Virus record (IMG/VR): IMGVR_UViG_3300030336_000001
Strand: one strand, 5' to 3'
DNA length: 20,000 bases
Source: an uncultured virus (IMG/VR IMGVR_UViG_3300030336_000001)
Lineage: Duplodnaviria; Heunggongvirae; Uroviricota; Caudoviricetes
Shown here: piece by piece, positions 1,198 through 20,000 of the stretch
Layout of the letters: every line of letters starts with the position of its first letter
Position numbering within the stretch: position 1 is the first letter of the stretch
Position numbers and translations under genes: made by a program
The notes under the pieces: model-generated
The model's database searches: none
The model's input: the letters and a program-made list of their open reading frames with translations, nothing else
What the model was told of the DNA's origin: nothing

Positions 1198-2424
1198 TTA
1201 GGTACTAAGTTCCGGGAACAGATTGTCGGTTCGCTCCAGCCCAGCCTCACTGCCGCTGTGCAGGTACTCATCCAACTCGGAAGAGCCACCCTCATCCAGT
1301 ACGTTGTACACTCCGAACGGGTGCCGCCAGTGGGCACCCCTACCACCGGCATTCATCCAGCAGTCCTCGGTTTCCTGGAGCCACCCCCACCAGTCGCACA
1401 GGCTCTCCAGTATGGGGTCTAGGCACTCCTTGGTGAACCGTCTTACATCGGCAGGGCTAATCTCAACCCGCCACCGCATGAAGAAGTTGTCCGGCTCTTC
1501 CATTATAACAGAGGCGAGTCGAGAGTAAAACTCGTCCTGAGTTTCTGGCGGCTTCCCGCCGATCCGCCCATCCCCACCACACTTTACGCACCTGGCACCG
1601 CTGGGCATCTTACCTTCACCCTTGCACTTCCCGCACTTAGCCCCGGCAGTACCCTTGCCCCTGACTATACTACCTTTCCCTCCAGAGAGTGGCCTCCGGA
1701 CCACGTTGTAACGTACACCACCGATTAGATACTCTCTACCGTCGGCGTGTCTGTAGTGACCCAGTCGTGCCAGGTCAGGACTCGGATTGTTGTATAGGGC
1801 GGTCATGTACATCATGGTCTGCAAGTCGAAGTGCAGTTGCTTCTTAAGTGCCTCCGGTTGCACGTCACCCTTCGTCTTGTTCTCCTGGATGTACACGGCT
1901 GCGTTCCTGCCCTTACCAATCAGGTCAACGCTGTCCCACTTACCCCGGAGAGTAACGATCTTACCTGATGGCAACTGGTATGGAACCCCGAAGGACTCTT
2001 CCTGGAGGAGAGGGGTACGCTGTAGTACATCTGGGTGTTCTGACCAGTAGTACAGATATAGTGGGAACTGTGTAGAACACACGTTCATCCAGTGTTCAAT
2101 GTTATCCTGGTCGGTGGGGTACTTCCTCATCAACTGGCCACAGTAGTCTGCTAGATAGCCCTGCCACTCATAGCCCTGTGCCCACATCTCCTCACATATG
2201 TGCCACATCTGACCATACTCGATACGATGGTTGAACCCTGACGCTGGCTTCAGACCCTCTACAACCAGTAACCTGAACCTCTCACGACACACGATGAATC
2301 TGCTGAGCAGGGAGAAGGTGATGCCGTCAACCTCCGGTCCCTTCCACACCGGGCCTGACCGAGCCTTTGGCCTGACCCTGTCAGCAGAGCCTATGCTACT
2401 CTTCAGCTTCTTAACAAAGTCCAT
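1198..2424 (-). CDS. PD-(D/E)XK (RecB/Cas4-like) phage exonuclease with an inserted CxxCxGxG zinc finger
   Basis: N-terminal TFSLLSRFIVC..RF, GQMWH, motifs E-E / LRGKWD / ENKT / QTMMY; insert CGKCKGEG...CVKCGGDG. Confidence 0.75.
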   Translation of the reverse strand: MDFVKKLKSSIGSADRVRPKARSGPVWKGPEVDGITFSLLSRFIVCRERFRLLVVEGLKPASGFNHRIEYGQMWHICEEMWAQGYEWQGYLADYCGQLMRKYPTDQDNIEHWMNVCSTQFPLYLYYWSEHPDVLQRTPLLQEESFGVPYQLPSGKIVTLRGKWDSVDLIGKGRNAAVYIQENKTKGDVQPEALKKQLHFDLQTMMYMTALYNNPSPDLARLGHYRHADGREYLIGGVRYNVVRRPLSGGKGSIVRGKGTAGAKCGKCKGEGKMPSGARCVKCGGDGRIGGKPPETQDEFYSRLASVIMEEPDNFFMRWRVEISPADVRRFTKECLDPILESLCDWWGWLQETEDCWMNAGGRGAHWRHPFGVYNVLDEGGSSELDEYLHSGSEAGLERTDNLFPELST

Positions 2425-2693
2425 TACGCCTCCATTATATCATTGAGACAATCTTTGCAGATAGGACACAGCTTAACCACCACCCCGTGGTTCTCCTTGG
2501 TAATCAACTCGCTACAGATAGTACAGCCGGTCTGACCTTTGGCTCTCTCACCCTTCCTGATGGTAGCCTGTTCCGGTGCGTCGATAGAGATGCTAACACC
2601 GTTGCGGTACAGGTCTTCAACCCTGATCACCACCTTCTCTTTACCCTCACCGATCACGATTGCCTGGCCAATCTCTCTCGTCAGTATCAGCAT
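2424..2693 (-). CDS. csrA: CsrA/RsmA-like RNA-binding regulator with a C-terminal CxxC...CxxC extension
   Basis: MLILTREIGQAIVIG...VSISIDAP...IRKGE aligns by eye with CsrA MLILTRRVGETLMIG...VRIGVNAP...HREE; tail has CTIC and CPIC. Confidence 0.75.
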   Translation of the reverse strand: MLILTREIGQAIVIGEGKEKVVIRVEDLYRNGVSISIDAPEQATIRKGERAKGQTGCTICSELITKENHGVVVKLCPICKDCLNDIMEA

Positions 2694-2696
2694 ACG

Positions 2697-3344
2697 TTAC
2701 CCTCCTAAGATATGGTCCTCGATTGCGTTGCAGATGACCACCACGCAATTCTGTATGACGTACCCACGCTGGGCTATGTTAACTCCAGACTTCAACAAGG
2801 AGCCTGGGTGGATGATGTCAACAACGTGGATGTGCTTCGGTAGTTTGACGCTGTGCTTATAGCCCTGGTGCATATAGTCTCTGGCTACCGCTCCTACTGC
2901 TACTATCAGCTTGGGCTGACAGATGTCTATGAACTCTGACAGTCGCTCCTTGCAGCAACCGATCTGGTCGGGGCACGGCTCGGATACCTTACCCCTCCTA
3001 CCTGTATCGGGGTCAACCTCCTTTGGTATGCAGCAGACTAGGTTGGTCATGGCGTAGGGTATCTCTGGAACCATTTGGTCGATACCCGTGTCATGATCTT
3101 TTACTCGGCAATGGGGTATCGCCTGGTAGATCATATAATCCAGTAGTTTACCAGCCGGACCCACGAACGGCCTGCCCGCACCATCCTCGCTTTCGCCCGG
3201 TGCCTCACCTATGAACAGCAGGTCCGCCGGTATCGTACCCCTTGCGAACACTAGCTTCCGTGCCCTGTCACAGTAATCAGAGCCGCATCCACCGGCCCAC
3301 TTCTTCTTGTGCAACTCATACGGTGTCAGGTTTATGGGTGGCAC
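2697..3344 (-). CDS. Uracil-DNA glycosylase, family 4 / SPO1 polymerase-related
   Basis: LLFIGEAPG-ESED, GRPFVGPAGKLL, TNLVCC-P, PKLIVAVGAVA and HP motifs; Cys residues compatible with an Fe-S cluster. Confidence 0.9.
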   Translation of the reverse strand: MPPINLTPYELHKKKWAGGCGSDYCDRARKLVFARGTIPADLLFIGEAPGESEDGAGRPFVGPAGKLLDYMIYQAIPHCRVKDHDTGIDQMVPEIPYAMTNLVCCIPKEVDPDTGRRGKVSEPCPDQIGCCKERLSEFIDICQPKLIVAVGAVARDYMHQGYKHSVKLPKHIHVVDIIHPGSLLKSGVNIAQRGYVIQNCVVVICNAIEDHILGG

Positions 3345-3827
3345 TCACTCCTCCTTTCCGTTGTTGACTCTAAGACAATACTCAAGGAGCAACAAAGCGT
3401 CTGATGTAGCCAGGGTCACCCTCTCGTCAGGCCACAACTCCTGTGCCTTGGCTTTCAGCCTGCCCTTGAACACAGACTTAGACTCGGTCTTCTTCTTGGT
3501 CGGTAGACCCAGTGCCTTCTGCCACTTCATCGGTGACACGGTCTCAAACCTAGCACGACTGGCCACTAACGCCATCCTGATAGAGCCATAGTTCATGCCT
3601 AGCTTGAACGCCGAGATGCTACCGTTTAGCGGCATGGCGTGGACCAACTCGACAACCGCCACTATCTGACTACCAGGGTATGCGTTGATTACCTCTAGTA
3701 AGTCACGCTCGGTCTGGGGCATGGGTACCGAAGTCAGGATACCTTCGTGTAGCATGGCTATGCCGCCACTTAATCCCGGATCAATACCCATCCATACCTT
3801 GGATCTGCCTACTATCTTAGGCATCAT
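3345..3827 (-). CDS. RuvC-like Holliday junction resolvase
   Basis: GIDPGLSGGIA, AVVE, SAFKLGMNYG, VSPMKWQK and C-terminal SDALLL motifs; GAGGAGG SD. Confidence 0.85.
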   Translation of the reverse strand: MMPKIVGRSKVWMGIDPGLSGGIAMLHEGILTSVPMPQTERDLLEVINAYPGSQIVAVVELVHAMPLNGSISAFKLGMNYGSIRMALVASRARFETVSPMKWQKALGLPTKKKTESKSVFKGRLKAKAQELWPDERVTLATSDALLLLEYCLRVNNGKEE

Positions 3828-3841
3828 TTCCTCCTCTTATT

Positions 3842-3885
3842 GAGAGTGCTATCGCTTCCTCCTTCAGAGAGCGCTATCGCTTCCT
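3842..3885. repeat. 19-bp direct repeat, 2 copies with 1 mismatch, period 25
   Basis: GAGAGTGCTATCGCTTCCT (3842-3860) and GAGAGCGCTATCGCTTCCT (3867-3885). Confidence 0.85.
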
Positions 3886-4122
3886 TTTCCCTAGTACGGT
3901 TACGGTTACCGACTCGTCCTCGTTGACGACCACTCTAACCTCCATGGCGTACCTTCTTGCAGAGGCGTTGTTACGTATCTGCTGTGCCATCGTATAGCCA
4001 CGACCGTTGAAGTCGCGACCTGGATAGATGGTGAAGGGTTCTGTGGTTGCAAACCATTCCTTCCAGGGATACCTCCTGGTATGAAGGTTGTTCTTCTTCG
4101 GCCTGCCACTGTGCACGGCCAC
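3874..4122 (-). CDS. Small basic hypothetical protein, possible DNA-binding protein (MAVHSGRPKK...YPWKEWF)
   Basis: ORF 3874..4179; start moved to GTG 4122 because AGGAGG lies just upstream. Confidence 0.7.
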   Translation of the reverse strand: MAVHSGRPKKNNLHTRRYPWKEWFATTEPFTIYPGRDFNGRGYTMAQQIRNNASARRYAMEVRVVVNEDESVTVTVLGKRKR

Positions 4123-4202
4123 GTCAACCTCCTTTCTATCACAACAACAAGCCCCACCCGCCGTGTCCTTGTTGAGCACGGTAGGTGGGGCGGGATCAAC
4201 TC

Positions 4203-5672
4203 TTACGTGGCGACTCGAACGGGCTTCTTCTTACCTGGCTTAGACTCTGGTTCAGGTGTGGGTTCCGGTTCGGGTACCAGATCAAATCCTTGATCCGGTT
4301 CAAGGTTGGGTTCAGCCTTCCTGGCCTTACGCTTGTCACGGTTCTCCTCTCTACGCTTGATCTCCTGTTCCTTGGCAGCCTCGATCTCCTTCTTGGTTGG
4401 CTGACCCTTAGCAGGAGGCGGCTCGTCCCCGTCACCCTGGTCCTTTGGATCGCCAAGGTCGATGCCACCCAGGTCCGGGCACTCAGCGATGGTACTGATC
4501 TGGGTCTCTGGGTCAGTGTCGTACTTGGGCTTAACAGAGCCGTCGGTCATCTTCTGGTTACTGGCGAACAGTCTCCACGCCTTCACCAGGATAGCCAGCT
4601 TCTCACTGTTAGTGGACACCAACTTGAGCAGCTTCCTCGCTACGTTCAACACGCCATCACCCTTGCCGAACGCGGCCCAAAATTCAACGGCTTTGTCCCA
4701 CATAGAGAAGTCAATCAACTCCTCCTTCGCCTCACCACCTCTGACGGCTGCCAGGTAGACACCCTCACCGGTCTGACTTGCTGCCATCATATACATCATA
4801 CCGGCGGCGAATCCCAGGTTGATATACTCTTTGATGGAGTTGTCACTGTTCTCATCATAGACGTGACTGACGCAACGCATGAGCCTGGGGTGCTTCTCCA
4901 GGAAGTTCAACACCTCGTCGTGTGTACGTCTCGGGGAGAACGAATGCTCTCCGTTGCCGGTCCGGTGCCACAACAATCGGATAGCCATGTCGGTGATCTT
5001 CGCGGCAGCCTTGCGATCCTCTGGCTTCTTGTTGCGGAAGTACTCTGAGCGGAAGATCACGTCGCTGATGGAACGCGCCTTGCAGGTGTCCATCGTGTTG
5101 ACCACCCTATCGGTCTCGCTCAACCCGTAGACGATCAGCTTGTCTATCACACAGGGCTGACCATCCCACAACTCCATCCACCGTGCGTGCTTCTGCCGCA
5201 ACTGGTCTGCCACGATCAGGGCAGGTAGGGTGTGCTGCCCGTTGAGAACCAGTGCCGTCTTGCCGATCAGGATAGGCTCGCCGTTCACGGTCTCTCTGTC
5301 ACCGTTGGGTGAACCATCTTCGTGCATGCCGTTAGGTCCAGCCCACCGTCTGTTCAAGATGGTCTGCGTAAGGTTACTAAAGTTGCTCTGGTAGAACGGC
5401 CTGTTGTTGATGTTGTTCAGACACCACACCGGCTTGTTGTCGGCGTCCTTGAACAACGGGTCTAACCACTTGATACCGTACTGGTCCTTGAATTTCTTAA
5501 CCTCATCTTCATCCCAGGTTGCCCCGAGTAGGAAGATAGCATGTTCGACGGTGACTGGGGTAGCACCCCACGCCTCTTCGATAGCAACCTCCGGGTACTT
5601 AACCGGACGCTCTACTGCCTGGTCAACCAGTTTGCCGGACGCCTTAGTCTTCTTGGGGGTTTTCGTAGCCAT
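4203..5672 (-). CDS. ParB/DGQHR-superfamily-like protein with a charged, Pro-rich C-terminal tail
   Basis: NNRP...W...NGEPILI...VLNGQHTL.AL matches the NRP / NGE-I / DGQHRL pattern of phage ParB-like proteins; AAGGAG SD. Confidence 0.6.
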   Translation of the reverse strand: MATKTPKKTKASGKLVDQAVERPVKYPEVAIEEAWGATPVTVEHAIFLLGATWDEDEVKKFKDQYGIKWLDPLFKDADNKPVWCLNNINNRPFYQSNFSNLTQTILNRRWAGPNGMHEDGSPNGDRETVNGEPILIGKTALVLNGQHTLPALIVADQLRQKHARWMELWDGQPCVIDKLIVYGLSETDRVVNTMDTCKARSISDVIFRSEYFRNKKPEDRKAAAKITDMAIRLLWHRTGNGEHSFSPRRTHDEVLNFLEKHPRLMRCVSHVYDENSDNSIKEYINLGFAAGMMYMMAASQTGEGVYLAAVRGGEAKEELIDFSMWDKAVEFWAAFGKGDGVLNVARKLLKLVSTNSEKLAILVKAWRLFASNQKMTDGSVKPKYDTDPETQISTIAECPDLGGIDLGDPKDQGDGDEPPPAKGQPTKKEIEAAKEQEIKRREENRDKRKARKAEPNLEPDQGFDLVPEPEPTPEPESKPGKKKPVRVAT

Positions 5673-5700
5673 TGTTATAGCTCCTTGTCGTTGGAGGGAT

Positions 5701-6009
5701 TCACTTAGCCGTCGGGCGTCCGACGGTCGTTGTCTTACGAATCAGCCGTTGCTCGTTGCCGTCCGTCGCTTCAATAGGAACAGCCTCTTGCTGAACCTGC
5801 TTTAACTGCATCCTCCTGAATCGGCACAATTCCACTAAGGTAACTGATTGCAGGTCTTCATCACACAACCTACATACAGGTATCTCCCTAGATATCTCCT
5901 GTCTGGTTTCGTTGTGCTTCAGCCCCGGCACACTGCGGTATACCCTATGTACCCTCATCGTGTTATTATGTGGAACCCATACGCCGCACACCCTACATCT
6001 GTAACTCAC
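5701..6009 (-). CDS. Hypothetical zinc-binding protein
   Basis: CRVC and CRLC pairs; first gene after the promoter at 6059-6087; AAGGAG upstream. Confidence 0.65.
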   Translation of the reverse strand: MSYRCRVCGVWVPHNNTMRVHRVYRSVPGLKHNETRQEISREIPVCRLCDEDLQSVTLVELCRFRRMQLKQVQQEAVPIEATDGNEQRLIRKTTTVGRPTAK

Positions 6010-12712: not shown

Positions 12713-12976
12713 TTACTCGGGGTCGGTGTTGATGAACTGGTCAAGCTCTGCCTTGTCGTTAGGCAGCCGTTGCTTGCAGAACCTGAACGAGTTGGTATAG
12801 TAGAACAGGTCGTCGTAGCCACTACGATCCAGACTAATGGCGTACTCACTCCAGTCCTCGACGTGCTCCAACATCCACTCATGAACCGGTGTGTAGTACT
12901 GTTCTCGTACCCTGTTCTCTACATCACTACGGTTCCGGTTCTCGTAGTGCATCAGGTCACGGTTGGTCTTGCTCAT
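12713..12976 (-). CDS. Small protein, 'F....R[LM]P....E' family member
   Basis: YYTPVHEWM ... FRFCKQRLPNDKAELDQF; ATGA overlap with the upstream gene. Confidence 0.7.
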   Translation of the reverse strand: MSKTNRDLMHYENRNRSDVENRVREQYYTPVHEWMLEHVEDWSEYAISLDRSGYDDLFYYTNSFRFCKQRLPNDKAELDQFINTDPE

Positions 12977-13179
12977 CGCTCATCCTCCGGTTTGTGTACT
13001 ATGGGATCAAGGCGACACTCTTCTTCTGCCATCCTTGCAGCTAGTTTGCACGTCAGTCTAGCGTCCTGCTCACCACTACCCTTGCCTATTAGGTCCACCC
13101 ACTTGCTACCGTCGTGCCACTGGGGGTAGTATCCCTTGCTGAACGTCCAGGCGATACGGTAGTTGTACTGCTCACCCAT
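12973..13179 (-). CDS. Hypothetical protein
   Basis: 68-aa ORF, GGAGGAG SD, TAATG coupling. Confidence 0.7.
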   Translation of the reverse strand: MGEQYNYRIAWTFSKGYYPQWHDGSKWVDLIGKGSGEQDARLTCKLAARMAEEECRLDPIVHKPEDER

Positions 13180-13286
13180 TACTCTCCTCCCTCATAGATG
13201 TCGTTGTCCATCTCTACCACTATTACGGTCAGTGCTGCTAGTCCAAGCAGTGTGACCAGCACAGCCAGTACGATTGTCAAGAGCAT
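13179..13286 (-). CDS. 35-aa membrane peptide (MLLTIVLAVLVTLLGLAALTVIVVEMDNDIYEGGE), not in the ORF track
   Basis: Translated by hand; GGAG SD; stop overlaps the next start (TAATG); one hydrophobic segment. Confidence 0.7.
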   Translation of the reverse strand: MLLTIVLAVLVTLLGLAALTVIVVEMDNDIYEGGE

Positions 13287-13338
13287 GGTATTACTCTCCA
13301 GAGAGGGGGGCCGGGCGATAGCCCCAGGTTAGGACTGG

Positions 13339-13518
13339 TTACGACGGGTAGGTCAACTGCTCGATACGCTGGGCGATCTTGAATCGCCGTGCCTTGCGTC
13401 GGTCACTCATCAGCTTGACTCGCTGTCGGCTGTCGTTGCGTGAGCTACCAGTCCTGGTGTGGGTACGGTGAATGCTCATCGGCTCGCGGGTGGACTCGAT
13501 GCTGTTGTCGTACTGCAT
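13339..13518 (-). CDS. 59-aa Arg-rich protein (MQYDNSIESTREP...RRKARRFKIAQRIEQLTYPS), not in the ORF track
   Basis: Translated by hand; AGGAG SD; fills the gap between genes. Confidence 0.7.
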   Translation of the reverse strand: MQYDNSIESTREPMSIHRTHTRTGSSRNDSRQRVKLMSDRRKARRFKIAQRIEQLTYPS

Positions 13519-13565
13519 GTCTAGCTCCTGTGAAGGGCGATGGGTATAGGGCGACTAGGGTTGGG

Positions 13566-13778
13566 TTACTTGCTCTTCGGGAACACCTGCTTGACCTTAC
13601 CCGCCAAGGGTAAGACCTGTCGGACCTTGCCCTCATCCATGTTGTAGCCGACCAGTTCGGCAGCATCCAGTTGGTTGTTGTGGTACGCTGCCTTCAAGTC
13701 ACGGAGGTTACGGTAGGTCTGGCCCACGAACTTGCCGTGTCGGTAGCCAGAGAGATAGTATCGTGTCTTACGTGCCAT
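13566..13778 (-). CDS. Small basic hypothetical protein
   Basis: 70-aa ORF with AGGAG SD. Confidence 0.7.
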   Translation of the reverse strand: MARKTRYYLSGYRHGKFVGQTYRNLRDLKAAYHNNQLDAAELVGYNMDEGKVRQVLPLAGKVKQVFPKSK

Positions 13779-13831
13779 GTTATAACTCCTGTACTGGTAA
13801 TGGGTTGCGTCGTTACGTCGTTGGTTAGGGG

Positions 13832-14443
13832 TTACTTACGGGACCACACCACACTGATGTACTTGCTCCCCTTCTTGATGAAACGCTCGCCGTCGTCACC
13901 CTCTGTAACCTTGAACGTAGGCTGCTTACCAACTGGGATGTACCTGAACCTCTTGCCCTGCTTCACCCGGTAGTAGAGATCTCCCTCATAGTTGGGCTGC
14001 TCTGCCTGCTCGATTGGGGTAGTAGCAACCTGCCCGACGACGGGTTGTTCTTCAACAACTGGCTGCTCTTCGACCGGCTCGGTAACCCCGTTCACCGACT
14101 GGATGACAAGCACCACTTCACGCAGTACCTCTGGGGTAGTGACTGGTGGCTCTGTGCCAGGGTCATACGACTCGATGCTGCACAGACCCGATGGCATGGA
14201 TCGACTGAGCATCTCGTTGCGTCGGGCATCGACCGCCTCCCGCTGTTGCCGGTAGTAGGACATGGCTGGTAGGGCGAGCAGTGCAGAGATCGTGCTCATC
14301 AAGAACTGCCAGGCATCGGCTATCACCTGGCGGTCAGCTCTCTGGAGGAAACCACTGAACATGGCACCCAGGTACATGTCGAGGGTGGCGTCGATGCGGG
14401 AGAGGTTGGACTCGTTGCTGCTGTAGATGCGGTTGGTAGACAT
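13832..14443 (-). CDS. Hypothetical protein: helical N-terminus, EEQPVV-repeat linker, basic/aromatic C-terminal domain
   Basis: 203-aa ORF, GGAG SD; tandem EEQPVVEEQPVV. Confidence 0.75.
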   Translation of the reverse strand: MSTNRIYSSNESNLSRIDATLDMYLGAMFSGFLQRADRQVIADAWQFLMSTISALLALPAMSYYRQQREAVDARRNEMLSRSMPSGLCSIESYDPGTEPPVTTPEVLREVVLVIQSVNGVTEPVEEQPVVEEQPVVGQVATTPIEQAEQPNYEGDLYYRVKQGKRFRYIPVGKQPTFKVTEGDDGERFIKKGSKYISVVWSRK

Positions 14444-14526
14444 CGTTCACTCCGTACGTTGGTTAGGACTAGGGTATAGGGCGAGAGGTGGGCGACTGGT
14501 TAACAGTAGGGCATAGGCGTTGCTCT

Positions 14527-15225
14527 CTAGTAGGTGCTGACCGACACGGTGACGTAGGTAGGGGAGAACCCGGACTGCTGGGTGACATTCACCTCCACCT
14601 TCAGGTTGGATTCTGGCAGGTCAAGCAGGGCGTCTCTTGCTACCAGTGCTGACTCCTCAATGCCCTCACACTCGGACACCTTGTACTTGACGCTGAATCC
14701 CTTGGCGTTGCCGTTCATGGCCGACGGCTTGCAGCCGGTCATGTCTCCCAGTACCTGCATTACACGCAAACCCAGTGGCTTGAAGTACTTGCGTAACACG
14801 GACATCCTGTTCATGCTCTTGTGTTCCCTCACGTACTCGACGTACTGCTTGTAGTCGAAGAACGGGTTGGCTGCTGATCGCTTGGCTCGCCTGGCGTACA
14901 CCCCGTCGATGTACTTGCGTAGAGCAGTGAAGAACCGGATACGCTCTTCATCAGGTACCAGATTGTACAGAGTGTAGCTGTCTGGTAGGCACTCGTCAGC
15001 ACCTAGTAGCTTACGTGCCAGTGAGTCTGCCTTCTTGTGCCACTCGCTCAGTTCCCCCATGGTAACCAACACCTCGCTGGTTTGGATAGGAGTGACAGCT
15101 GTTCGTTGGGTGCTGTTCGTGTACTGGTCGTGCCAGTACTGGGCACTCTCTAGGTCTGTGTACTCGTAACGGCGCGGGTTGGCCACGTAGAGCCACGTCA
15201 CGTAGAACGAATGAACCGTAGTCAT
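14527..15225 (-). CDS. Hypothetical protein (MTTVHSFYV...)
   Basis: ORF 14527..15294; start moved to ATG 15225 after GAGGTG, which removes the overlap with the upstream gene. Confidence 0.75.
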   Translation of the reverse strand: MTTVHSFYVTWLYVANPRRYEYTDLESAQYWHDQYTNSTQRTAVTPIQTSEVLVTMGELSEWHKKADSLARKLLGADECLPDSYTLYNLVPDEERIRFFTALRKYIDGVYARRAKRSAANPFFDYKQYVEYVREHKSMNRMSVLRKYFKPLGLRVMQVLGDMTGCKPSAMNGNAKGFSVKYKVSECEGIEESALVARDALLDLPESNLKVEVNVTQQSGFSPTYVTVSVSTY

Positions 15226-15268
15226 GGATACACCTCTGTTGGTATGGGTCGTGCTAGTCAAGAACCAG

Positions 15269-15472
15269 TTAGTATTCAGCGGACACCAGTACAAGATCGA
15301 GGGCTAACTCTGATGCTGTTACTGGCATGCGGCCAGTCACGAACACGAAGTCGTCAAGACACTCACTCAACCAGTCAAGCTCTACTTTGTTTGGTTGTCT
15401 ACCATTTGTCACGTTGGCCACATGGTACGGTATGTAGACAGACATCAGCCACCGTCGTTGCTCGTTCATCAT
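15269..15472 (-). CDS. Small protein, 'F....R[LM]P....E' family member
   Basis: QRRWLMSVYIPY ... FVFVTGRMPVTASEL; GAGGTG SD. Confidence 0.7.
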   Translation of the reverse strand: MMNEQRRWLMSVYIPYHVANVTNGRQPNKVELDWLSECLDDFVFVTGRMPVTASELALDLVLVSAEY

Positions 15473-15548
15473 GCACCTCAGTTGTAGGGGTTAGGGCGAT
15501 GGATGACAGAGGGGTGGGCGACTCACCCCTCACTCTGCTTGCTGGTGG

Positions 15549-16130
15549 TTACTCGTCAACCGGCTTGCTACCCACCATGATCAGGTTGCCACCGACCTGG
15601 ACCTTGACGGTGTGCTCACCAACCTTGACCTTGGCCTTGCCGTTGACGTTCCAACCGAAGCTGCCGGTGCTGAAGATCTTGAGTGTACCCTCGATCACGT
15701 CGCTGCCGATGACCACCACCACCTGGCAGGGGTACTCGATGAAGTCGTCAGCCGTGACTGGGCACACGTAGGCAGGATCCTTGGCACCCGGCTCGGACTT
15801 GGACTTGGGCTTGATGATCTCCGTACCACGCACCTCGACGTTGACCTTGCCGTTCACGTACCAGCCGAAGGAGCCGGTGCTGAACATCTTCGGGTCAGCC
15901 TCAAGGGGCTGGCCGTTGACCGTGACCGACACGTACTTGGCCAACTCGATGAACTGCTCTTCAGTCACCGGGCACTCCGTCTTCTTGTGCCCGTTGTCGT
16001 CGGCCTTCGCCTTGCCCTTGCCACCCTTGGCCTTGGCCTCTGGCTTGGACCCGACCACGATCAGGTTCATGCCGACCTGGACCTTCGCCTTGACCGTGCT
16101 GACCGTCGCCGCCGTGCTGGACTTCACCAT
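15549..16130 (-). CDS. Protein with a duplicated 'CPVT...K.FSTGSFGW.VNGK' beta domain
   Basis: Two clear internal repeats; AGGAG SD; strong G/C third-position codon bias. Confidence 0.85.
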   Translation of the reverse strand: MVKSSTAATVSTVKAKVQVGMNLIVVGSKPEAKAKGGKGKAKADDNGHKKTECPVTEEQFIELAKYVSVTVNGQPLEADPKMFSTGSFGWYVNGKVNVEVRGTEIIKPKSKSEPGAKDPAYVCPVTADDFIEYPCQVVVVIGSDVIEGTLKIFSTGSFGWNVNGKAKVKVGEHTVKVQVGGNLIMVGSKPVDE

Positions 16131-16319
16131 TGTAGACTCCTGGGGTCATGCCCCAACTGTGGGCCACTCAACATGAGTGACTCCGGTACTACCCTATGCC
16201 AGCCCCGACATGGGACTGTTGCCCGTTCACCCCAACGTGGAGGTGGGTAGTGTGGTGAACATATGGAGGGGCAGTGTCGTTATCACACCACCCCTACTCA
16301 TCAAGACTGCCACCCCAAC

Positions 16320-16347
16320 TTCATACCGTGCCAAACACAGGAGTCAA
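16320..16347 (-). promoter_or_regulatory. Possible sigma70-like promoter upstream of 15549..16130
   Basis: TTGACT, 16-nt spacer, TATGAA in a 320-bp intergenic region. Confidence 0.35.
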
Positions 16348-16449
16348 GGGCGTGACCCTGTGTCGGTACTCGGCTACCGTTACGCCACTGAGCTATGGTC
16401 TCCTGGTTGGGGTACGGGTTAGGGGCGATGGTTGGGCGTCGCTCGCTCA

Positions 16450-16752
16450 CTACTTGCAAGCCATCGCTTGCAGTTCGTGTTGCTTGGCTGGTGTGCACTG
16501 CCATCGGGTAACTGTGCACGCCTCATCAGCAGGTGCCACCACTTCGAGTGTCACTACCACACCTGCCGTCGGGTTGCTTCGGTAGTGTTGTACGGTGTCG
16601 TTGTACACTGGTATTACTACCTGCCTGTTGCCTTGGTACAGCGTAGAGTGGACCAGTGAGTTGGGCACACCGGGTATCGGTCGGGTGTATGACACCCTGT
16701 ACGTTCGGGGTGTGGTGCTGTTGCTGGTGCTGGGTTCGTAGTGCTTGGCCAT
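16450..16752 (-). CDS. Hypothetical early protein
   Basis: 100-aa ORF, TGAGGTG SD, Ser/Thr-rich N-terminus. Confidence 0.7.
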   Translation of the reverse strand: MAKHYEPSTSNSTTPRTYRVSYTRPIPGVPNSLVHSTLYQGNRQVVIPVYNDTVQHYRSNPTAGVVVTLEVVAPADEACTVTRWQCTPAKQHELQAMACK

Positions 16753-16817
16753 GTCGTCACCTCATGGGGTCAGGGGTTGGGGGTAGTGGGTGATACTGGG
16801 CGACTGTGTACGGTGCC

Positions 16818-18554
16818 TCACTTGCTGGCCTGTGCCTTGGCCAGGTACTCGGTGCCCTTGGCTGTGATGGTGAAGGTGATCACACCTGGGTTGTCAACGC
16901 TACCCTCACACTCGGTGGCCAGCCCCAAGGTGCACAGGCTATCGGGCTTGCCCTGACGCATCACAGCCGTCAGCTGGTTGTAGTACCCGGTGTGTGCCTC
17001 GATGCCACGGTAGGTCAGTGGCCGCTTGCCAGCCAGTGCCCTCAGGCACCGGTAGTGCACCACACTCAACCCCACCGCCTTGGCACACCGCTTGTCATCG
17101 GCCTGCTGTTGGGGGGTGTACTCGACCTTGGGTGCCTGTGGCTTGACCACCTGTGCCACCGGTGCCGGTGTAGCTGGCTGCTGTACCACCTCAAGCACCT
17201 CGACCACCGGCAGCGACTCGACCTGCACAGCCGATGTGGCAGGGGTGGTACCCTGTGCCAGCCACTCACGCAGTGCCCGTCGCATCACCCCACCGTCACG
17301 GTTGTCAACCGACAGCCCCACTGCCTTGCACGCCTTGGCCAAGGCACCCAGTGTGCCCTCGTCGATGGCTGCCTGCACTGTGGCCCTGTGGTCAACCGCC
17401 TTGGGTGCTGGCTTGGCCACTGGTGCCGGTGTTGGGGTAGCTGGTGCTGGCTTGGGTTGTGTGGGCTGCTGTACCGGTGCTGGTACAGGTGCTGCCTTGG
17501 GTGCCGGTGCCGGTGTGGCAGGGGCAGTACCCTCACTCGGCAGCCACGCTGCCAGGTCACGACTCACGGCTCGCAAGTGGTCGAGTGCATCACCCGACTG
17601 CACGGTGACGGTGTCGAGCAGTGCCATGCCTGCCTTGAGCAGCACGTACGCTGCCGCTGCCCTGTCGGCCCGCTTGGGCAGTGCCTTGGCTGCTGCCAGG
17701 TGGGCCTTGACCGCCTCGACCGTCAGCAGTGGGCTAGCCACTGTGGCCACTGGTGCCACAGCCGGTGTCGCTACCGGTGCTGGTGTGGGCTGTGTGCTGA
17801 CCGGCTTGTTGGACACCACCACTGGCCGCACCTCGCTGATGGGCACCTTCACTGGGGTGACCGCCTTCACCTCGGCAGGGGTGACCAGCGGCTGTACGGG
17901 CTGTACGGGCTGTGGCTTGGGCTGCACAGGTGCCGGTACCGGTGCTGGGGTGTTACTAACACTCGGTGCCACAGGGGGGGCGACTGGTGCCGGTGTGGCT
18001 GCCACTGGCTTGCCCACCAGTGCCTGACGCCGCTTGACCTCACAGCCAGCCTTGCGGCAGTACCCGCTGTTCAGGTACGCTGGGTTGCACTGCATGTTAC
18101 AACCGGTGCAACGGGGCAGTGTCGAAGCGGGGTACTCGTTGGTGCTGGTGCTGTTCGTCGTGGTCGTGGTCGTGCTGGTCATGTTCGCCTCGGTGGTTGG
18201 GGTGTTGATGGTCGTGTTGGTGGTGACGGTGACGCTTGGGGTGTTGGTGGCCTTGCTGCCCCACGCCTTGGGGGCAGGCTGCTTGACGGTGACGGTGCCT
18301 GCTACTACGCCACGCAGCAGGTCACGGCCTGTGCTACTCAGGCACAGGTACGCCAGGTGCTCACCACGCTTGACCGTGGGTTGCACCTCAACCAGCACGT
18401 ACCCACACTTGGCAAGTGCCTTGGCGGTGGTGTGGTGTACGGTGGCGTTGGGCAGGTCGGTGGTGTTGGTGACACGCAGGTTGGTGCGGTCGGCTGCCTG
18501 TAGCACAGCCAAGTGGGCTTGGGTGATGGTCAGGGTGGTGGTCGTGTCGCTCAT
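16818..18554 (-). CDS. Large Pro/Ala/Val/Thr-rich multidomain protein: N- and C-terminal winged-helix-like domains, Cys cluster, SAP/Rho-N-like motif
   Basis: AKALAKCGYV...LSSTGRDLL and SLCTLGLA...FTITAKGTEYL wHTH-type endings; CTGC..C....C...C; LAKACKAVGLSV....MRRALREWL. ATG 18554 has a TGAGG SD; an alternative GTG is at 18617. Confidence 0.75.
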   Translation of the reverse strand: MSDTTTTLTITQAHLAVLQAADRTNLRVTNTTDLPNATVHHTTAKALAKCGYVLVEVQPTVKRGEHLAYLCLSSTGRDLLRGVVAGTVTVKQPAPKAWGSKATNTPSVTVTTNTTINTPTTEANMTSTTTTTTNSTSTNEYPASTLPRCTGCNMQCNPAYLNSGYCRKAGCEVKRRQALVGKPVAATPAPVAPPVAPSVSNTPAPVPAPVQPKPQPVQPVQPLVTPAEVKAVTPVKVPISEVRPVVVSNKPVSTQPTPAPVATPAVAPVATVASPLLTVEAVKAHLAAAKALPKRADRAAAAYVLLKAGMALLDTVTVQSGDALDHLRAVSRDLAAWLPSEGTAPATPAPAPKAAPVPAPVQQPTQPKPAPATPTPAPVAKPAPKAVDHRATVQAAIDEGTLGALAKACKAVGLSVDNRDGGVMRRALREWLAQGTTPATSAVQVESLPVVEVLEVVQQPATPAPVAQVVKPQAPKVEYTPQQQADDKRCAKAVGLSVVHYRCLRALAGKRPLTYRGIEAHTGYYNQLTAVMRQGKPDSLCTLGLATECEGSVDNPGVITFTITAKGTEYLAKAQASK

Positions 18555-18613
18555 GGTACGCCTCATGGGTTGGGGGTGTAGTGTGCTCATCGTGTACGGG
18601 TTGGGGTTGTGTG

Positions 18614-18739
18614 TCACAGCCTACGCAGCAGGGTGCGTACCCTGTGCAGCAGTCGTGTCGGCAGGTAGTACACCTCATGCCACAGTCGGTGTAGTACGCT
18701 GGTGGTGTTGGTGCTGGGGGTGCTGGTACGGTTCGTCAT
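18614..18739 (-). CDS. 41-aa basic amphipathic peptide (MTNRTSTPSTNTTSVLHRLWHEVYYLPTRLLHRVRTLLRRL), not in the ORF track
   Basis: Translated by hand; TGAGG SD; Thr/Ser-rich start like its neighbours. Confidence 0.55.
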   Translation of the reverse strand: MTNRTSTPSTNTTSVLHRLWHEVYYLPTRLLHRVRTLLRRL

Positions 18740-18779
18740 GGTCATGCCTCACGGTAGGGGGTGTAGGGTGTACGGGTGC

Positions 18780-19067
18780 TCAGTTGCACAACCTGGGTGC
18801 CAGTGCCTCAACGCAGGGCACCTCACACTGCTGCTCATCACCAACGGCCATGTACAGCCGTGTCAAGCCGGTGTCACGGCAGCTGACCAGGGTGGCTACT
18901 ACCCACGTGCCGTTGTGTGCACAGGTGTAGCCCCTCACGTCGGTGTTGGTGTCAGGGTCGTACATGGGTGCACTGTACGTGCAGCCTGGCAGCTGTGCAA
19001 GCAGCAGGTCGTGCCACTCATCGGGTGTGGTGCTGGTGGTGCGTGTGGTGCTGGGGTGCTGGGTCAT
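18780..19067 (-). CDS. First gene after the early promoter (MTQHPSTT...), hypothetical
   Basis: ATG 19067 with a CGAGG SD. The longer 19310 start would run through the promoter. Confidence 0.7.
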   Translation of the reverse strand: MTQHPSTTRTTSTTPDEWHDLLLAQLPGCTYSAPMYDPDTNTDVRGYTCAHNGTWVVATLVSCRDTGLTRLYMAVGDEQQCEVPCVEALAPRLCN

Positions 19068-19089
19068 GGTACTGGTGCCTCGTGGTGGG

Positions 19090-19104
19090 GGTGTTAGTAA
19101 CACC
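19090..19104. promoter_or_regulatory. Palindrome GGTGTTAGTAACACC in the early leader, candidate operator
   Basis: 7+1+7 perfect inverted repeat; second copy GTGTTACTAACAC at 17950-17962. Confidence 0.55.
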
Positions 19105-19173
19105 GCCTCGTGCTTGTGTGCCCCACAGGTGGGTGGGGCTGCCAGCGGCGGGTTTTTTCCTCGCCTGTGATCC

Positions 19174-19201
19174 ATTATACCAAAAAATTTTTTTTTGTCA
19201 A
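19174..19201 (-). promoter_or_regulatory. Strong sigma70 early promoter
   Basis: TTGACA (19201-19196), 16-nt spacer ending in TGG, TATAAT (19179-19174); UP-like A/T tracts and two TTTGCGCAAA palindromes upstream. Confidence 0.9.
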
Positions 19202-19374
19202 GCATTTGCGCAAATTTTTGCGCAAAAATTTTTCGGCCCGTTGCCGCGCCCGCATTATGCGCGCGGGGCAACGCGCGGCCGGGCGCGCCATCCGCGCGTC
19301 CGCGCTCCATGCAAGCCCCAAGCTAGCCCGCGATCCAACGCGCGACAAACCACTCCGCGCAGGCGATCCATATG

Positions 19375-19760
19375 CCTGCTTGCAAGAGTGCTTGGCAGTC
19401 CGTGCTTGGGGCTTGCAAGCGTCGTTATGACGCTTGGGGCTTGCAAGTGTCATCGCTGACGCTTGGGACTGGGTGCTTGGTGCTTGCAACGTGCAGCTTG
19501 CAAGGGGGTGCTTGGCACTTGGCACTGGTGCTTGCGGCTTGCACGTTGGCACTGGCAAGTGCTGGCTTGCAGGTTGCAAGTGTGTGCTTGGGACTTGCCA
19601 GTTGGTGCTTGCAAGTACTGGCTTGGGACTTGCGGGTTGCGAGTTGCGGGTTGGCTCTTGCAAGTGCTGGCTTGGCAGTGCCAAGTGCCTGTTCGGGAGC
19701 CAGTGCTTGGTGCTTGGGAGTGTCATCGCTGGTACTTGCAAGTACCGGGTTGCAAGTCAG
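19375..19760. repeat. Non-coding array of short repeats built on the palindrome CTTGCAAG and on GTGCTTGG/GCTTGG
   Basis: About a dozen TTGCAAG-type copies; longer duplications GCTTGGGGCTTGCAAG (x2) and AGTGTCATCGCTG (x2). Confidence 0.85.
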
Positions 19761-20000
19761 GAGCCAGTGCTCTGGACTCGGTGTTTGGCAGTGCTGTTTG
19801 GTGCTGGACAGTGGGGACGTGCGAGTGGGGAGTGGGTGGTGCAACCCGAGAACCAGCACTTGGTACTCCCAACCCGGTACTCCCAAGCACCACACACGCG
19901 TAGCACTGGAGCACCCAAGCCCTCCCCCCTGGTGCCTTGCGTGTAGGGGGCATTCATGCCGCGACGTGGGGGGAACCTCCCGATCCGGGATAAAATTTAC

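Follow-up and report, generated by a model that had tools for sequence, protein, structure and literature searches.

We describe a 2.5-kb segment, positions 16653-19152 of a 20,000-nucleotide window from an uncultured phage (IMG/VR record IMGVR_UViG_3300030336_000001), from which two overlapping sets of trinucleotides are absent or rare on both strands: T-Y-Y with its complement R-R-A (Y, pyrimidine; R, purine), and the triplets built wholly of A and T (W3). By the window we mean the whole stretch analysed, bases 13566-33565 of a 47,422-bp linear record that is estimated to be 66% complete; the source is an uncultured soil phage with a genome of about 70 kb. Up to about 19.2 kb the genes are on the minus strand and form a leftward arm, and the genes to the right lie on the plus strand, so that the purged segment, hereafter the zone, is the head of the leftward arm at the point where the two arms diverge. 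In a reading to which we give about even weight, selection at the DNA level keeps this first-expressed operon clear of the words that a short-motif enzyme acting on nucleic acid would recognise.

How complete is the purge? We take as core classes AAA/TTT, AAT/ATT, AGA/TCT and GGA/TCC (eight words). Their counts in the zone, plus strand over minus, are 0/0, 0/0, 0/0 and 1/0, the sole core word being a GGA at 17811. Three further classes are rare, ATA/TAT at 1/3, TAA/TTA at 2/3 and GAA/TTC at 2/8 (totals 4, 5 and 10), and seven of the 32 triplet classes are affected altogether. A preliminary description of the window had given the same core counts, with their total of 1, and they are exact; it had called the three further classes rare, and had also held that the words are common elsewhere in the window, as indeed they are (27 AGA, 62.5 TCT, 25.5 GGA and 49.5 TCC per 2.5 kb of the remainder). 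Five 500-bp bins covering 16436-18935 contain 3, 0, 1, 0 and 0 core words, against 17-71 in each of the other 89 of the contig's 94 bins. Stretches free of core words reach 1,342 and 1,161 nt within the zone and 212 nt at 16401-16613, and elsewhere in the window are at most 125 nt long.

Shuffled controls, which the preliminary description had proposed as the means of separating selection from composition, come nowhere near these numbers. Against the single core word observed, synonymous permutation with the zone's own codon usage gives a mean of 63.9 and a minimum of 43 (2,000 permutations), shuffling of codon order 97.6 and 73, recoding of the same proteins with the codon usage of the replication genes 120.6 and 92, and a dinucleotide-preserving shuffle of the 2.5 kb 89.1 and 66 (1,000 shuffles). 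For TCC/GGA the one copy compares with 30-44 expected from codon shuffles. Because all the shuffles lie far above the observed value, amino-acid composition, codon bias and GC content do not explain the purge.

What rule do the missing words follow? In the zone the two bases in front of an A include a pyrimidine; behind AA, AG, GA or GG an A is absent or rare (AAA 0, AGA 0, GGA 1 and GAA 2 on the plus strand). The complement of this rule is that T does not stand before two pyrimidines (TTT 0, TCT 0, TCC 0), with TTC, at 8 copies, the leaky member. Purine triplets that end in G are common (AGG/CCT 96, GGG/CCC 134, AAG/CTT 46, GAG/CTC 45), and the zone also holds 79 TCA/TGA and 66 TCG/CGA. To this is added the absence or rarity of all eight W3 triplets. 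No 4-mer class is depleted below the prediction from its triplets, and the unit under selection is thus three bases. Four-base palindromes stand at Markov expectation, as with GTAC (31 versus 32.0), CCGG (18 versus 16.9) and CATG (13 versus 13.1), and TCGA is present at 9 versus 5.4 expected, TGCA at 18 copies and GGCC at 16; since such palindromes are not avoided, this is not ordinary restriction-site avoidance. Two causes put forward in the preliminary description are not supported. Avoidance of many adenine-methylation restriction-modification sites leaves no signal past the trinucleotide level and no deficit of four-base palindromes, and exclusion of a factor that binds TCTCTGGAG would not require the loss of every copy of seven triplet classes.

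The depletion had been taken for a single purge. The depletion stands but the single constraint does not, for there are two separate, overlapping bans, TYY/RRA and all-A/T, which differ in extent and in conservation. We compared observed/expected ratios for the two word sets, obtained from per-gene shuffles. For TYY/RRA the ratio is 0.82-1.16 in all genes outside the early arm (0.98 in the first rightward gene), with values near 1.0 for 30 genes elsewhere as well as for the 12 genes tested in the right arm. Along the leftward operon, and there only, it follows a gradient, from 0.00-0.12 in the zone through 0.49 at 16450-16752 and 0.70 at 15549-16130 to 0.76-0.89 at 12713-15472, so that the ban fades over the 4 kb past the zone. 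The all-A/T ban reaches farther, being still complete at 15549-16130 (1 versus 46.9 expected), and W3 ratios of 0.26-0.6 are found in several other genes, the capsid-region genes (0.39-0.60) among them. In large part the all-A/T ban may be an expression-linked bias. It probably has a separate cause, such as a strong codon bias combined with selection to escape AT-tract readers or to keep out spurious promoter and terminator signals.

A variant, L008, indicates which of the two bans is kept. It is identical to the window over 17625-20000 and carries 67 substitutions farther left; the 2,470 aligned nucleotides of the zone contain 62 of these, 40 transitions and 22 transversions. None creates an AGA, TCT, GGA or TCC, and L008 still has only the one shared copy. 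Random change would create one of these words in 9.9% of transitions and in 19.7% of all changes, which gives a probability of 1.6e-3 to 1.3e-6 for no new copy. All-A/T triplets rise from 9 in the window to 17 in L008, near the random prediction (8-12), and two all-A/T core words are created. As none of the 62 substitutions makes RGA/TCY, it seems clear that the RGA/TCY ban is under current selection. We note a mosaic break in L008 at 17624/17625, and a soil-run contig (depth 54) that joins 18734 to 19063, with only 22 nt on its shorter side, and so drops 328 nt comprising nearly all of the first open reading frame (ORF). The skip and the break together suggest frequent recombination inside the zone.

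One might still think of a compositional accident, in which a recently acquired high-GC module or an extreme codon bias gave rise to the zone with no selection on words. The GC content is indeed 61-68% in the zone and about 53% elsewhere, and the all-A/T ban is partly common to well-expressed genes, as the capsid-region ratios show, and is lost in L008 at the rate that random change predicts. But where one copy is observed, 64-89 remain in shuffles that preserve either the dinucleotides of the zone or its codon usage. Codons ending in A or T are common (16.7% and 9.9%), so that GC content at third positions is not enough to purge the words. The RGA/TCY ban holds through 62 substitutions, and the zone is contiguous with its phage flanks in several independent metagenome contigs. 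For TYY/RRA this explanation is contradicted; it survives only as a partial account of the all-A/T part, and as a whole we find it scarcely credible.

The purge is costly to the encoded proteins. The minus strand of the zone is the coding strand: between the window and L008 the ratio of non-synonymous to synonymous change (pN/pS) is 0.13 for the 578-residue ORF. Of the five other frames four have values of 1.3-3.2, and the fifth, an antisense frame whose third codon positions coincide with those of the ORF, has 0.25. Phenylalanine accounts for one of 816 codons in the zone and isoleucine for 1.1%, compared with 2.9% and 5.3% elsewhere. Serine is mostly AGC and lysine exclusively AAG, and threonine, proline, alanine and valine make up 47% of residues. 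With RGA absent, each aspartate or glutamate codon must follow a codon that ends in a pyrimidine. The four ribosome-binding sites (RBSs) of the zone all read YGAGG, and most other genes use sites that contain GGAG. The counts and these RBSs bear out the claim that the constraint is strand-symmetric, spans genes and spacers and reshapes the RBSs. In the zone the GC and AT skews are reversed or exaggerated relative to other leftward genes, with 36% C and 13% T on the sense strand. Two candidate signals were set aside: GGTGCTGG, with 12 plus-strand and no minus-strand copies, is merely the antisense of Pro-Ala-Pro linkers, and the E. coli-type Chi octamer (2/0 in the zone, 4/0 in the contig) is too infrequent, besides being an E. 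coli motif that may not be the host's.

The borders of the zone are informative. A sigma-70-type promoter matching the consensus at every position (Table 1) reads leftward into the zone and is the sole promoter-like site in 13000-20000, where shuffles contain 1.6 weaker sites on average. The zone begins about 14 nt past the predicted transcript start, and its right edge is abrupt at 19152/19153, banned words resuming at 19153 beside the promoter; the described abrupt end at a promoter is thus well placed. The left edge lies at 16645-16650 (AGA at 16645, GGA at 16650), within or just before the fourth ORF, and no convincing minus-strand terminator was found there (RNA fold of 16300-16700, z = -1.1). 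The stretch without AGA or TCT is longer than the zone, extending from 16646 to 19384. A GC hairpin followed by a T run, exactly at the right border, looks from its sequence like a terminator for rightward antisense transcripts, and on the minus strand it corresponds to the first ~25 nt of the predicted early transcript.

What might select against three-base words over one operon? We propose that host RNA polymerase would read the zone as an immediate-early operon from the consensus promoter, and that selection on both strands would continue to act against TYY (complement RRA) in it, with the looser all-A/T ban superimposed. The TYY/RRA ban would then be a form of stealth, since the operon would have to work before any counter-measure exists. 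The reader would modify or cut nucleic acid at three-nucleotide words on either single strand, heavy transcription and the first replication of the operon laying the strands bare. Of the known readers a DarT2-type ADP-ribosyltransferase of single-stranded DNA would come nearest. The DarT of enteropathogenic E. coli (EPEC) is reported to ADP-ribosylate single-stranded DNA at the motif TTT/TCT (PMC7003065), and DarT2 enzymes are described as reading motifs of four bases, the first and third of them T, DarT1 being relaxed (PMC11543638). We infer, with confidence evenly divided, a DarT-like host enzyme acting on single strands as the selective agent. DNA is favoured over RNA by the symmetric loss of AGA/TCT and of GGA/TCC and by the AGA/TCT-free stretch upstream of the promoter; the preliminary description had placed the selection on DNA, and with RGA/TCY also kept between variants this is the most economical reading. 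A pressure that weakens with distance or time from the start would agree with the gradient along the operon.

Several observations weigh against a short-motif enzyme of this kind. DarT was suggested in the preliminary description, and the absence of TTT and of TCT (0/0 each) fits the EPEC motif, but TCC/GGA is not covered by it and is left unexplained; TGT, a T-N-T word, is abundant (117 copies of TGT/ACA), and AAT/ATT also falls outside the published DarT2 motifs. For a 2.5-kb purge to be protective, the remainder of the genome would have to gain protection later or enter later. If virion thymine is a derivative of 5-hydroxymethyldeoxyuridine (5-hmdU), a thymine-directed host enzyme might not act on it. 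Finally, the promoter, the DNA upstream and the first ~14 transcribed nucleotides are packed with banned words, including 27 AAA/TTT in the bin that starts at 18936 and a run of six T residues at 19153-19158, and a reader of any double-stranded DNA should hit there. The same density favours a reader that matters only in the transcribed body, where strands are opened and lesions block expression.

A related issue is whether the words are avoided in RNA. The early mRNA might lack the sites of a ribonuclease or RNA-modifying toxin, along with AU-rich sites of the RNase E type, the symmetry in DNA being a by-product. The ban starts almost at the transcript start, and the pyrimidine words of the sense strand are the cleanest (UCU 0, UCC 1, UUC 2, CUC 4, UUU 0). 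The all-A/T set is unchanged by reverse complementation, and so its symmetry does not discriminate between DNA and RNA. An mRNA ADP-ribosyltransferase specific for GA does exist, CmdT, which is reported to modify the A of GA in single-stranded RNA and to be triggered late, by capsid protein (PMC11618068). That late trigger speaks against such an enzyme here, as do the 103 copies of GA in the mRNA, in UGA and CGA (TCA 53 and TCG 50 on the plus strand). At the RNA level two unrelated bans would be needed, because AGA and TCT, and likewise GGA and TCC, are each absent on both strands. The AGA/TCT-free stretch extends 230 nt upstream of the promoter, outside this transcript, and GGAAAAAA lies within the first 14 nt of the RNA. 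We consider selection on RNA improbable.

Is the purge shared by related phages? The portal protein has 1,559 homologues with E<=1e-10 among scored candidates, many on 60-78-kb contigs; one of them (P0050, 924 residues) also carries DNA topoisomerase IB domains (PF21338, PF01028). An alignment-based scan of IMG/VR confirmed 587 places, from which 80 loci with 35-57% portal identity were kept. Among the 78 related loci of at least 4 kb, scanned for gaps where the expectation was at least 14, 24 have some gap, and a purge of several words occurs only in L024, which belongs to a complete 72.6-kb genome (G001). At about 5930-6927 of L024 each of the classes CGA, GAC, GAA, GGA, AGA, GAG, GAT and TGA occurs 0-2 times where 21-30 copies would be expected, and over 770 nt GA has 1 copy versus 54.6 expected and TC 3 versus 45.8 (sense-strand GA 3 versus 45.8). 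This unit is a single minus-strand gene 3-4 kb upstream of the portal gene, beside a terS-like gene and short-repeat arrays. It encodes a Lys/Ala-rich protein of 149 residues, one of them acidic, and a strong intrinsic terminator follows it. Homology of its product to the C-terminal domain family of the 578-residue protein was rejected (hhalign probability 0.2%, BLASTP E 1.6). Gaps of one triplet class (0 copies versus 20-26 expected) were found in L048 (CAC/GTG, 869 nt, 3543-4410), L016 (GTA/TAC, 821 nt, 5164-5983) and L013 (ACG/CGT, 925 nt, 318-1241). The three gaps fall in a band 4.0-6.7 kb upstream of the portal, with which the place of our zone overlaps. Apparent purges in L040 and L041 proved to be arrays of GGCNNGGC-type repeats instead.

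The preliminary description had counted a lack of depletion in the homologous regions of relatives as a refutation. L008 and L024 do show purges, but for distant relatives the refuting outcome was obtained: G006 and G008, where a homologue of the winged-helix domain of the 578-residue protein is the first leftward gene at the divergence point, have normal word content in that gene. No purge was found anywhere in the complete genomes G006 (first 60,000 of 60,552 nt), G008, G012 and G023, all of which carry PF18723, the helical domain of a 5-hmdU DNA kinase. Purges in L008 and L024, and none in G006, G008, G012 and G023, indicate that the trait is lineage-specific and not an artefact.

These relatives bear on a second explanation, that the phage's own base modification is responsible. 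Thymine derived from 5-hmdU might be hypermodified after replication in a T-Y-Y context (T-C in G001), the operon being kept site-free so that an unmodified host RNA polymerase could read the fully modified genome on its arrival, or hidden from a modification-dependent host nuclease. We regard this, in either form, as unlikely. The contig encodes a thymidylate-synthase homologue (PF00303, 2e-20, 436 residues), for which a hydroxymethylase and an ordinary ThyA are not told apart, a 291-residue protein matched over its whole length by the PF18723 domain (1e-40), its gene overlapping one for an FkbM-type methyltransferase, and a protein of the uracil-DNA glycosylase (UDG) superfamily. The TC/GA-purged G001 likewise has PF18723 (1.3e-45) and PF00303. 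Enzymes that read thymine in context exist: a phage thymine dioxygenase, 5mYOX97, is reported to prefer NTC and then NTT (PMC13229309). But PF18723, found in G000 too, is present in 12 of 30 tested relatives (1 of 5, namely G001 and none of the 4 others, and 11 of 25), among them the complete genomes without a purge, so that the purge does not simply follow the thymidine-modification genes, and PF18723 was rejected as its cause. FkbM is present in G008 and absent in G001, and no TET/JBP gene was found in G000, G001, G006, G008, G012 or G023. In the 36 Pfam-tested proteins of our incomplete contig there was no P-loop kinase domain, and no transferase was identified. The zone shows no template-strand bias (8 TTC on the template, 2 on the sense strand), and the promoter and a template T run at +8 to +14 would be heavily modified. 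The available part of a paper on the hypermodification pathway gives no sequence context for the kinase (PMC8989533). The lineage specificity of the trait and the different word sets of the relatives favour an external agent, from the host, over shared modification genes. We note that the ThyA homologue, the FkbM-type methyltransferase and the stand-alone kinase-domain protein form a cluster at 2521-5918 of the contig (L002), with genes overlapping by 7 nt, and as a set of domains this hints at a 5-hmdU-derived, perhaps O-methylated, thymidine.

A third explanation concerns DNA entry. Loss of a few triplets removes all type I, III and IIS restriction sites, or T-rich protospacer-adjacent motifs (PAMs), that contain them, and the first-entering stretch would be a hot spot for cleavage and spacer capture; the zone's restricted vocabulary might thus evade many restriction-modification or CRISPR systems at once. 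Modell and colleagues are said to have found, in 2017, that spacers are captured from the injected end. The layout is compatible with a genome end beside the promoter, since the zone adjoins the terS-like and terminase genes and short-repeat arrays, and the single-triplet gaps of L048, L016 and L013 fall in the same band upstream of the portal. GCGC and CGCG are avoided about eight-fold contig-wide (27 and 34 copies in 47 kb versus ~250 each expected from base composition). In Murciavirus, absence of type I motifs from the first-injected region is reported to decide sensitivity to the system (PMC12455610). Against this stand the zone's four-base palindromes, at expectation, and the want of any 4-mer deficit past the triplets. 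Banned words fill the promoter region, whose entry would come earlier still, and 23 of the 61 GCGC/CGCG copies are located just upstream. The distance of the portal from the contig ends varies among the five relatives flagged with direct terminal repeats, which is what arbitrary break points would give. The leakiest banned word, TTC/GAA with its 10 copies, is the common type I-C PAM. We think this explanation quite unlikely.

Returning to a short-motif enzyme, one may ask whether the zone and its counterpart in G001 point to something general. It is possible, and we offer it only tentatively, that a widespread family of enzymes, host- or phage-encoded, recognises words of two to three bases centred on TC/GA when phage DNA is single-stranded in the first minutes of infection, and has repeatedly driven unrelated phages to TC/GA-restricted first genes, TCY/RGA being restricted here and all TC/GA in G001. 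If this is true, then each phage's banned word set would report the specificity of its host's enzyme.

Table 1. Features of the window and flanking contig (window positions;., no strand assigned)
Feature	Position	Strand	Remarks
Zone without T-Y-Y/R-R-A and all-A/T triplets	16653-19152	both	word counts, shuffles
First ORF, 95 residues	18780-19067	-	RBS cGAGG
Second ORF, 43 residues	18614-18745	-	RBS tGAGG
Third ORF, 578 residues	16818-18554	-	pN/pS, homologues, fold
Fourth ORF, 100 residues, putative gene	16450-16752	-	RBS tGAGG; RGA/TCY ban ends inside
Next gene, 193 residues	15549-16130	-	two FSTGSFGW(N/Y)VNGK repeats; TYY/RRA 35 vs 50.1
GC hairpin (5-pair stem), then TTTTTT	19139-19158	+	right border of zone
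Promoter, sigma-70 type	19174-19201	-	TTGACA, 16-nt spacer with TG, TATAAT; 12/12 consensus positions
Promoter and upstream DNA	19153-19384	.	AGA+TCT 0 vs 8.3 expected despite many A/T runs
Two TTTGCGCAAA palindromes	19205-19228	.	just upstream of -35 element
UDG-superfamily protein	2697-3344		
Leftward-arm genes	left of about 19.2 kb	-	Sak4-like annealing protein, exonuclease, RuvC-like resolvase, UvrD-type helicase, HNH endonuclease
Genes farther left on contig			family-A DNA polymerase, ribonucleotide reductase, thymidylate-synthase homologue, PF18723 protein, FkbM-type methyltransferase
Rightward-arm genes	right of about 20.2 kb	+	terS-like protein, terminase large subunit (two ORFs), portal, capsid-region proteins

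No Pfam or PHROG family was found for the four zone ORFs (PADLOC and NCBIfam were not among the libraries searched), nor was homology to T5 or T7 early proteins in these searches, and no family was found for the 193-residue protein that follows. The 95-residue ORF gave no lead in the ESM Atlas, where its best scores were 0.76 and 0.75. The 578-residue protein comprises small folded domains joined by Pro/Ala/Val/Thr-rich linkers; it contains a ribbon-like Cys4 motif and ends in a MarR-like winged-helix domain. Among 1.84 billion representative sequences it has 71 homologues with E<=1e-3, nearly all to residues ~450-578 and most of them small basic proteins of 100-220 residues; one of 789 residues (P0126), of ordinary composition, matches over three stretches, best in the N-terminal domain (query residues 12-81). 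Among 5.8 billion proteins, searched at near length, only its own 100%-identical cluster (8 sequences, from 10 contigs of up to 68,868 nt) and a single 88-94% variant were recovered. The C-terminal domain is modelled by AlphaFold2 with a pLDDT (per-residue confidence score) of 88.5, and its top 50 matches in the PDB are almost all of the MarR family, with TM (template-modelling) scores of 0.43-0.61 and E values of 1.5e-3 or weaker. From the winged-helix fold of this model the 578-residue protein is probably DNA-binding; nothing in the Pfam/PHROG, homologue or fold searches points to an anti-defence function.

The DNA upstream of the promoter has features of its own. The TTTGCGCAAA palindromes are possible operators or UP-like A/T runs, to judge from their letters and position. 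The GCGC/CGCG copies noted above are packed into an island of 136 bp (19236-19371) just upstream of the early promoter, which includes a 20-nt near-perfect palindrome (19236-19276). From 19380 to 19900 runs a degenerate array with a 7-nt period on CTTG (GCTTGCAAG, TGCTTGG), whose spacings are multiples of 7 and which pairs with 19840-19892 through long imperfect inverted repeats. Other short-repeat arrays occupy the same place in relatives (L024, 4800-6000; L040, 1080-1270 and 2060-2940, of the GGCNNGGC type). The CTTG array could be a packaging, origin or partition site. A further motif, (T)TCTCTGGAGGA, has 19 copies in the contig, in both orientations, 9 of them in the window versus 0.9 expected; some lie just upstream of start codons, and in the leftward arm 7 copies are on the strand opposite the genes.

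The stretch is present in 13 soil-metagenome runs from 13 studies, of which 9 may be sources of the record, the material searched being assembled contigs of 2019 soil runs, and there are no RNA runs among the 13. A blastn search with 16000-20000 found no match in 50,697 phage records, a search of viral contigs gave a low-complexity match only, and a close-relative search with a single portal query had as its sole match another fragment of the same phage. The terminase large subunit is split into adjacent ORFs of 229 and 360 residues (L003:1332-2021 and 2024-3106, or 21266-23040 in window coordinates), with a single stop between them, which match the N- and C-terminal halves of phrog_2. No tRNA was found in the window, and an Rfam search gave two sub-threshold matches only. 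One is to an HDV-like (hepatitis delta virus) ribozyme model at 16187-16260 on the minus strand (27.6 bits versus a gathering score of 44, E 0.037), in a 320-bp non-coding gap after the purged zone.

Why does the zone matter? Phage DNA is known to avoid restriction sites of 4-8 bp; in this case the words are triplets, and the ban is near-absolute over 2.5 kb and on both strands. We found no description of a trinucleotide-level purge of this kind in the full text of open-access papers and bioRxiv. The cost, which extends to almost all Phe codons, most Ile codons and the type of Shine-Dalgarno sequence, argues for a selective agent that is strong, specific and as yet unnamed. Should the agent be a host enzyme, purged early operons would give a readout of its specificity from sequence alone and would mark the genes needed first. 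Should it be the phage's own thymidine modification, the zone would give the modification motif, and incoming modified genomes would need an unmodified 'starter' operon.

Of the known systems, DarTG (DarT2) resembles the proposed reader in its three- to four-base T/C-rich motif on single-stranded DNA, where both strands count, and in the total absence of TTT and TCT from the zone. It differs in that the published motifs (TTT/TCT in EPEC, TNTC in Thermus) miss TCC/GGA and the rarity of TTC/GAA; the zone is rich in TGT, and L024 bans every TC, not TNTC alone. No DarTG-bearing host is known for this phage, which may not carry plain thymine. CmdTAC is alike in reading a GA-centred dinucleotide, which fits the TC/GA-free unit of L024 on the sense strand, but it acts on RNA only, the mRNA of the present operon is rich in GA, and the complementary TC ban would be left unexplained. 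Context-specific modification of thymine by phages offers a T-acting enzyme with a pyrimidine context of 2-3 nt, and our contig has both PF18723 and a ThyA homologue. The zone however contains NTC words (GTC 72, CTC 45, both strands together), no TET/JBP gene was found in the six genomes searched, which sets it apart from 5mYOX97, and relatives with the same pathway genes are unpurged.

The T5-type pre-early DNA of first-step transfer and the leading end of T7-type phages are early blocks that are read by host polymerase and depleted of defence words. With these, and with Murciavirus, the zone shares the restriction of the depletion to the first-expressed stretch, the rest of the genome keeping the words that a defence could read. 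The zone, for which the first injection suggested in the preliminary description and a place at a genome end are no more than possibilities, differs in that its palindromes are not avoided. Here the unit is a trinucleotide and not a site of 4-8 bp, and the composition of the early proteins and the ribosome-binding sites have been reshaped along with it.

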